From Candidatus Atelocyanobacterium thalassa isolate ALOHA (GTDB taxonomy: Bacteria; Cyanobacteriota; Cyanobacteriia; Cyanobacteriales; Microcystaceae): a DNA stretch of 32,000 bases. The notes beneath the pieces are model-generated. The model ran no database searches. It was given only the letters and a program-made list of their open reading frames with translations, and was not told the DNA's origin. This document shows, in pieces, positions 7,603-21,281 of the stretch (positions are counted from its first letter, which is position 1; the number at the start of each line of letters is the position of its first letter). The stretch lies in assembly GCF_000025125.1 (NCBI RefSeq), contig NC_013771.1, positions 480,001 to 512,000 of the forward strand, written 5' to 3'. The translations under genes were made by a program, and so were the position numbers.

Positions 7603-8583
7603 ATGATACGTTTACTTATAGCTGCAAGTGGTACCGGAGGTCATGTTTTTCCTGCTTTAGCAGTAGCAAAAAAATTACCTAATTATGATGTTCACTGGCT
7701 AGGCACATCTAATCGCTTAGAACAAAGTCTAGTAAATGATTTATATCCTTTACATACAATACCTGTTGAGGGATTTCAAACCAGATCTATTCTGAAAAAT
7801 ATAAAAATTTTATTTAGATTACTCCAATCAGTCTTCTGGATCAGAAAATTACTCAAAGAAAAAAAGATTGATGTTATTTTTACTACCGGAGGATATATTT
7901 CTGGTGCTGTTACTTTAGCTGCTTACATATTAGGAATTCCTGTGATATTACACGAGTCTAATTACATTCCAGGAAAAACAACAAAATTACTAAGTTATTT
8001 TTGTCATGTTACGGCTTTAGGATTTAAAGAAACAGAAAAATATTTACCATGGGCTACTACCACCTATTTAGGAACACCTATTAGAGAACAATTTAGTATT
8101 TCTCAATATTTAGATTTGAATATTCCAGAAAAAGCATTTCTAATAATTGTGATTGGTGGATCCCAGGGAGCAGTCTCAATTAACAACTTAGTACGTCAAT
8201 GTGCTTTAGATTGGATCAACTCAGGTGCATATGTTGTTCATTTAACGGGAAACAATGATACGAAAGTTAAAACTATTAATCATACTCAATATATTACACT
8301 ACCTTTCCATAGCAATATGGCTGCGCTTTTGCAAAGAGCAAATTTAGCGATTAGTCGTGCTGGTTCGGGAACATTAGCAGAATTAGCTGCTACTCATACA
8401 CCTGCAATTTTAATTCCTTATCCTTTTGCTGCAGAAAACCATCAATTTTATAATGCAGATTTTTTTGTCAAAGCTAAAGCTGCTTATTGTTATGAACAAA
8501 AAAAATTAACAAGAGAGCAATTAAAAATTGCTGTGTTAGACCTAATAAAAGATCCAACAAAGCTAAAAAGAAATGGCATATGA
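7603..8583 (+). CDS. murG: MurG (UDP-N-acetylglucosamine--N-acetylmuramyl-(pentapeptide) pyrophosphoryl-undecaprenol GlcNAc transferase); the reading frame breaks about 28 codons before the expected end
   Basis: The N-terminal SGTGGHVFPALAVA motif and the GGSQGA and RAGSGTLAEL blocks are typical of MurG. In-frame stop at 8581-8583. The conserved tail MAYEMSKLTTKDSAEKLAELINNSLKN continues in the +1 frame at 8573-8656. Confidence 0.85.
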   Translation: MIRLLIAASGTGGHVFPALAVAKKLPNYDVHWLGTSNRLEQSLVNDLYPLHTIPVEGFQTRSILKNIKILFRLLQSVFWIRKLLKEKKIDVIFTTGGYISGAVTLAAYILGIPVILHESNYIPGKTTKLLSYFCHVTALGFKETEKYLPWATTTYLGTPIREQFSISQYLDLNIPEKAFLIIVIGGSQGAVSINNLVRQCALDWINSGAYVVHLTGNNDTKVKTINHTQYITLPFHSNMAALLQRANLAISRAGSGTLAELAATHTPAILIPYPFAAENHQFYNADFFVKAKAAYCYEQKKLTREQLKIAVLDLIKDPTKLKRNGI

Positions 8584-8926
8584 AATGTCAAAACTAACAA
8601 CTAAAGACAGTGCAGAAAAGTTAGCAGAACTAATAAATAATAGTTTAAAAAATTAATCACTAGATGCTTTCTTTTAAAGATTTACTATAAAAAAATATCA
8701 TTTGTTATGTTATTTTTAGTATTTTTATATTCAATTAGGTAAGAAAAAATATACTCTCAACTTTAATCATAATAAAATTGTATATATCTATGATTAAGAA
8801 ATATTGCGAAAAGAAAATAAATAAGTCATAATTATTGGTGTAATACCTACATGTATAAGACTTTAGAATTATTTTCAACCAAGATTATTCTTGTTATTTG
8901 TGTTTTAGAGGCATTAGTAAAAATTT

Positions 8927-20710: not shown

Positions 20711-20939
20711 CGTATACTTTCATATTTGATTTCTAGCATATGATGAATAAGAGTTTTCTATTTGTAAGGAAAACTCTATGAGACGATATACTGTATTAAA
20801 ACGATTAATAATATTATTCAATAATAAATACTATTTGAAGAATGATTTAATCATTAATTGAATATAAGTTTCTTTAAACTTTTACTTTGCTAGATTAACG
20901 ACAGATTTAAGTATGATGTAATATCTACTAAAGATTTAG

Positions 20940-20961
20940 AGGGTATATTTTCTTATACCCT
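20940..20961. terminator. Hairpin AGGGTATA-TTTTCT-TATACCCT just beyond the rpsN stop; the U-tract lies on the plus strand
   Basis: The 8-bp stem at 20940-20947 pairs with 20954-20961. On the plus strand it is followed by TATTTTTAT; on the minus strand there is no T-run. Confidence 0.3.
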
Positions 20962-20977
20962 TATTTTTATCTAAGGA

Positions 20978-21281
20978 TTACCAACTAGATTTAACAACTC
21001 CAGGTAATAGTCCTTCATGAGCCCATTCTCTTAAAACGTTACGCGATAAGCCAAAGTCTCTATAGTATCCTCTTGGACGGCCAGTAAGCCAACAGCGGTT
21101 CCGATGACGTGTAGGAGCACTATTTCGAGGAAGACGTTGAATTTGGCGGTGAATTTCAATTTTCTCCTCATAATTTTCTGCATTATGAAAAGCTTCTTTC
21201 AAAGAGGCTCTTTTCTCAGCATATTTCTGAATCAGACGTTCTTCTTTTTTTTTCTCGTTCGATCATGCTTTTTTTAGCCAT
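20978..21281 (-). CDS. rpsN: 30S ribosomal protein S14, interrupted by a single-nucleotide frameshift in an A9 tract
   Basis: The minus-strand ATG at 21281 opens [12 protein letters not shown]. After the A9 run (plus-strand T9 at 21245-21253) this frame stops at 21218-21216. The remainder, [23 protein letters not shown]...[41 protein letters not shown], is open in the neighbouring frame down to 20978. Reading A8 gives a canonical 100-aa S14. Confidence 0.85.

Follow-up and report, generated by a model that had tools for sequence, protein, structure and literature searches.

The split of the rpsN gene (ribosomal protein uS14) in the ALOHA reference genome of UCYN-A1 (Candidatus Atelocyanobacterium thalassa), a marine symbiont that fixes nitrogen, is very probably a single-base insertion error in the reference consensus, and the organism's own rpsN, as read from the aligned sequences, is in all likelihood intact and encodes 100 aa (...GVVKSSW). 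An error is inferred because the reference disagrees with the other assemblies of this lineage. The split is judged to reflect neither slippage rescue nor a pseudogene, but to be an artefact and no real feature of UCYN-A1. The stretch of the reference that was analysed, referred to as the window, has a length of 32,000 nt and a GC content of 30.1%. The features of the rpsN locus in the window are as follows.

20978..21281, minus strand: rpsN (ribosomal protein uS14); window copy 304 nt long, vs. 303 nt in all other assemblies
21245..21253, minus strand: native in-frame A9 tract, read as GAA AAA AAA AGA (E K K R); the error site is elsewhere
21242..21243, minus strand: AA doublet where all other assemblies have one A; by assembly comparison, one of the two bases is the presumed spurious insertion
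21216..21218, minus strand: premature TGA in frame 0, produced by the extra base (from translation)
21200..21202, minus strand: internal TTG, which encodes Leu27 in the true protein and is the false start of the 74-aa fragment ADB95187.1 (from translation and look-up)
20939..20962, unstranded: palindromic, terminator-like hairpin, 16 nt 3' of the rpsN stop (from a consensus scan)

Translation of the window reproduced the split S14 described in the first-pass annotation. On the minus strand, the S14 ATG at 21281 opens an N-terminus of the canonical cyanobacterial type, which runs into the nine A residues at 21253-21245 (T9 on the plus strand). Frame 0 then reads RRTSDSEIC and ends at the TGA at 21218-21216, and the adjacent frame is open for the remaining part of S14 up to the TAA at 20980-20978. 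The 304-nt span exceeds a 100-aa gene by one base. That the annotated 74-aa ORF begins at an internal TTG at 21202, as had also been pointed out, was likewise recovered by translation. Once one base is taken out, the translation has a match to the Pfam family PF00253 (Ribosomal_S14) with E=3e-27 and 94.5 bits (cut-off 27) over residues 46-99.

The 74-aa fragment is identical to GenBank entry ADB95187.1 of isolate ALOHA, annotated as 'SSU ribosomal protein S14P' (exact protein match). Its neighbors in ALOHA are CtpB (ADB95188.1) and the Leu/Phe-tRNA protein transferase Aat (ADB95186.1). CtpB and Aat have RefSeq accessions (WP_012953853.1 and WP_012953851.1, respectively); the S14 fragment is found only as GenBank and UniRef entries. 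The missing WP_ accession is consistent with a RefSeq re-annotation that discarded the fragment as a frameshifted pseudogene.

The window was compared with five independent sources of UCYN-A1 sequence, namely ERZ17174936, ERZ907918 (Tara PRJEB4352), GCA_051971645.1, TARA_SAMEA2621337 and ERZ17174979. Each of them covers 9-21 kb of the window and differs from it by only 1-8 substitutions over the covered part. Judging from project and contig naming, these other assemblies appear to be Illumina-based. All five encode a 100-aa S14 and are devoid of the extra base in rpsN. Four of the five rpsN genes are identical to that of the window apart from this base; the fifth (L088) carries one additional SNP. 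In the alignment, the A9 tract is read as GAA AAA AAA AGA GAA CGT, i.e. E-K-K-R-E-R, in every one of the five sources.

The comparison also locates the surplus base. The window has A9-G-AA-GAACG where the other assemblies have A9-G-A-GAACG, which on the plus strand corresponds to C-TT-C-T9 vs. C-T-C-T9. Because A9 is common to both versions and the doublet differs, the surplus base is one of the two A residues at 21243/21242. The first-pass annotation had placed the extra A inside the A9 tract; this placement is contradicted by the independent UCYN-A1 assemblies, which keep A9 in frame and differ from the window just downstream of it. The repair it had proposed, the deletion of one A, does restore the full-length frame, but a deletion within the tract yields EKKEERL, whereas the real protein reads EKKRERL. 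Its option of an assembly error is supported by the intact gene in all independent assemblies examined, but the accompanying prediction of an A8 tract is not, the native tract being A9.

The intact protein is widespread. The collection has 129 contigs, drawn from NCBI, JGI, Logan, ENA and Tara, that encode the 100-aa form with EKKRERL, among them a metagenome-assembled genome from Station ALOHA itself (MCH2543193.1), and a 95-aa form of the intact S14 with an alternative start is found on 78 further contigs. An identical 435-aa product of the adjacent ctpB gene is encoded by many metagenome contigs, which are listed in 213 blocks of the collection.

A frameshifted contig with the same downstream sequence would receive the same 74-aa call, since there is no ATG, GTG or TTG upstream in this frame. 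In a collection-wide search for exact protein matches, the 74-aa call was found outside the reference on two short scaffolds only, both of which were rejected as support for the frameshift. The first begins inside rpsN. The second (L004, TARA_SAMEA6015953 scaffold_178758) has a foreign 5' end and contains the intact A9-GAGAACG, so that A9 with an intact frame is found here as well. Within positions 1-40 of L004, the first ~35 nt (CACACAACACCAACTATAGCGAATAAAAAAAAA...) are unlike the UCYN-A sequence upstream of rpsN. This 5' end is junk or chimeric and gave rise to the spurious 74-aa call, which matches the fragment of the reference exactly. Altogether, the extra A was found in none of the five independent UCYN-A1 assemblies (0/5) and in none of four UCYN-A2 loci (0/4). 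Neither a gapped pattern across the indel site, which did work on known loci, nor a fixed 36-mer just 3' of it had a match in JGI metagenome contigs, and the two scans yield no population count. No relevant mention of S14, rpsN, a frameshift or 454 was found in the comparative-genomics papers on UCYN-A that were examined, and none of the titles and abstracts on Atelocyanobacterium and frameshifts points to a problem with S14.

The gene is also intact in the sister lineage. In UCYN-A2 assemblies, including the complete AP024987.1 and SIO64986, rpsN is intact, encodes 100 aa and lies between ctpB and aat in the gene order of UCYN-A1, and the UCYN-A2 protein is only two residues apart from the corrected S14 of UCYN-A1. 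Crocosphaera S14 shares 93% identity with the corrected protein and is the best among the matches listed for UCYN-A1 S14 in species-representative genomes. The other listed matches are from other cyanobacteria; no Atelocyanobacterium record is among them, which says nothing on the absence of the gene. The corrected gene is an ordinary long-form cyanobacterial uS14 gene, standing alone between ctpB and aat. It shows no notable difference from its ordinary counterparts. In the tract itself, UCYN-A2 and Crocosphaera have A7 at the position of A9, with AAG for the second Lys, and a synonymous change from AAG to AAA in the conserved EKK(R) extends A7 to A9 in UCYN-A1. No A run of more than 8 is found within the first 60 nt of 80 other rpsN genes from cyanobacteria.

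The whole 32-kb window was compared with the same independent UCYN-A1 contigs, and substitutions and indels were found to behave differently. The reference allele is also found elsewhere at 16 of the 17 substitution sites and is private to the reference at one (1/17). Substitution alleles that are present in at least one other assembly can therefore be regarded as ordinary population SNPs. Single-base indels were found at six sites, five of which are reference-private (5/6; Fisher exact test for private indels vs. substitutions, p=0.001). All other covering assemblies oppose the reference at the private indel sites, at 21242 this being five of five sources. The window has an extra base in five of the six cases, and four of the six sites are intergenic. 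The six sites are listed below.

1930: T to TT, one base after TTT; intergenic; reference-private
8565: A4 to A5; in murG; reference-private
15925: T7 to T6, base missing in the window; intergenic; reference-private
21242: T to TT, one base before T9; in rpsN; reference-private
28423: G to GG; intergenic; reference-private
28888: A to AA; intergenic; polymorphic, L089 agrees with the window

Some of the four intergenic indels could be genuine variants. The second genic site lies in murG (Glyco_transf_28), which extends over 7603-8656 of the window. Here, an extra A at 8565 precedes the apparent stop by 18 nt; the ORF in the window (7603-8583) ends with ...KLKRNGI and comprises 326 aa, and in two independent assemblies the protein reaches 350 aa, its C-terminus being longer and of another sequence (...KLKEMAYEMSKLTTKDSAEKLAELINNSLKN). 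Both rpsN and murG are broken by private insertions in an otherwise near-identical background, which points to a technical problem in one record. The 54 A/T runs of at least 7 nt in the window show no difference in length to the other assemblies. Classic miscalls of long homopolymers are therefore not rife in the reference, and the type of error proposed for rpsN is the rarer, near-homopolymer one.

As the origin of such an error, a carry-forward/incomplete-extension (CAFIE) phase error of 454 pyrosequencing is proposed; the platform of the ALOHA reference was presumably 454 Titanium. On the plus strand, the true sequence would be C-T-C-T9. Strands that had passed the C one flow too early would add part of the nine-base signal to the flow of the single T. 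On the opposite strand, molecules lagging in A9 would add signal to the next A flow. The singleton would hence be called as two in both sequencing directions, and since this overcall would be systematic, the error could outlast consensus building.

PMC3382182, which cites Tripp et al. 2010, states that the UCYN-A genome comes from flow-sorted cells whose DNA was whole-genome amplified and then read by next-generation sequencing such as 454. Insertion errors by carry-forward and by incomplete extension within 454 reads were described by Huse et al. 2007 (PMC2323236), from which the criterion applied here is taken: C-TT-C-T9 in place of C-T-C-T9, as found at the rpsN site, fits the pattern of a carry-forward insertion as defined there. 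In Gilles et al. 2011 (PMC3116506), insertions were the most frequent type of Titanium error, and the CAFIE phase effects were explained. Luo et al. 2012 (PMC3277595) reported that frameshift errors persist in 454 consensus sequences, that they are biased towards A/T, and that low-GC genomes are affected worst. The insertion in rpsN resembles these errors in several respects. It is the same base as that of the long homopolymer and one base away from it; it is an A/T insertion in a genome with 30% GC and creates an artificial frameshift in a gene; and it is accompanied in the window by further private single-base indels, mostly insertions. In contrast to the published cases, the long homopolymers of the window are correctly sized, and the mechanism is deduced here from the consensus sequence.

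The extra A might instead be a real mutation in the sorted and amplified ALOHA cells, either a rare or transient allele or an artefact of amplification from few templates. No special rescue mechanism would then be involved, and the allele would not be representative of UCYN-A1. Such an origin is improbable, though it fares best among the alternatives. The reference stems from an environmental sample that was sorted and whole-genome amplified (PMC3382182), and a real minority allele and a base-calling error look alike when seen without reads. Against a real mutation stands the absence of the extra A from every other assembly, including the one from Station ALOHA. Moreover, four more private single-base indels are found in 32 kb of the reference, one of which truncates the essential murG. 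Several private indels including the one in murG argue for a systematic technical cause rather than for multiple independent, lethal-looking mutations.

Rescue of poly(A)-tract frameshifts by transcriptional slippage in endosymbionts was reportedly described by Tamas et al. in 2008, and rescue of this kind had been suggested for rpsN in the first-pass annotation. The frameshift would be real, and either the loss of one A on A9 during transcription or ribosomal frameshifting would compensate for it, giving an S14 with the exchange R13E. The setting is suggestive in that the extra base has an A9 run 1 nt upstream of it and an mRNA lacking one A would encode a full-length S14 with one residue changed. 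The remainder of rpsN shows no decay, as would equally be expected of an artefact. Rescue on poly(A) tracts has been reported for endosymbionts with AT-rich genomes (PMC3017870, PMC5009743), and UCYN-A1 rpsN shares with the slippage genes of Buchnera and Blochmannia the AT-rich, reduced genome, the adjoining run of nine A, and the status of an essential information-processing gene that is otherwise undegraded. In Buchnera and Blochmannia, however, the rescued genes have their indel inside the tract, and separate populations or species have the frameshift in common (PMC3017870). In rpsN it lies outside the tract, beyond the following G; the tract is A9 in frameshifted and intact alleles alike; and the frameshift is absent from the other UCYN-A1 populations and from the sister lineage UCYN-A2. 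The peptide EKKEERL, which deletion of a tract A would produce, has no occurrence in a collection of 15 billion proteins, although a product arising at the mRNA level is not expected there anyway. Taken as an explanation of the reference sequence, slippage or frameshift rescue is thus very unlikely, and the earlier suggestion is not upheld. There is equally little reason to expect that the extra A is truly present in cells at Station ALOHA and that these survive by RNA polymerase slippage on the native A9; if they did, no cyanobacterial symbiont or nascent organelle would have provided an example of poly(A) slippage rescue before.

The probability that this rpsN copy is a true pseudogene, with S14 supplied by a second gene or by import from the haptophyte host, is close to nil: such an organelle does import host proteins, but a pseudogene would gather further changes and its lesion would recur in other UCYN-A1 assemblies, whereas this copy is otherwise identical to the intact ones and the gene is intact everywhere else, and a second copy is superfluous as an explanation because the gene is intact in nature.

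With a consensus error as the preferred explanation, UCYN-A1 has a normal S14 gene and the split of rpsN is biologically of no weight. The value of the result lies in an erratum for a widely used record, concerning ADB95187.1 and murG, and in a caution. The ALOHA record serves as a reference in later genome work on UCYN-A, e.g. in PMC8679911. Five reference-private indels were found in 32 kb, and two of them disrupt the essential genes rpsN and murG. By extrapolation, the 1.44 Mb genome would contain on the order of two hundred reference-private indel sites. If the rate holds genome-wide, such sites could be mistaken for pseudogenes, gene loss, indels of a length not divisible by three, or recoding in comparisons of UCYN-A1 with UCYN-A2. 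Independent assemblies should therefore be compared first when recoding is claimed for AT-rich symbiont genomes.

The native, in-frame A9 of the essential rpsN could cause some transcriptional slippage of its own. If such slippage is measurable, it would burden or tune the expression of S14 in UCYN-A1. Downstream of the gene, the hairpin between rpsN and aat has the arms GAGGGTATA...TATACCCTT, which form a 9-bp stem, and a T-rich tail on the plus strand. The hairpin may serve to terminate transcription, possibly in both directions.
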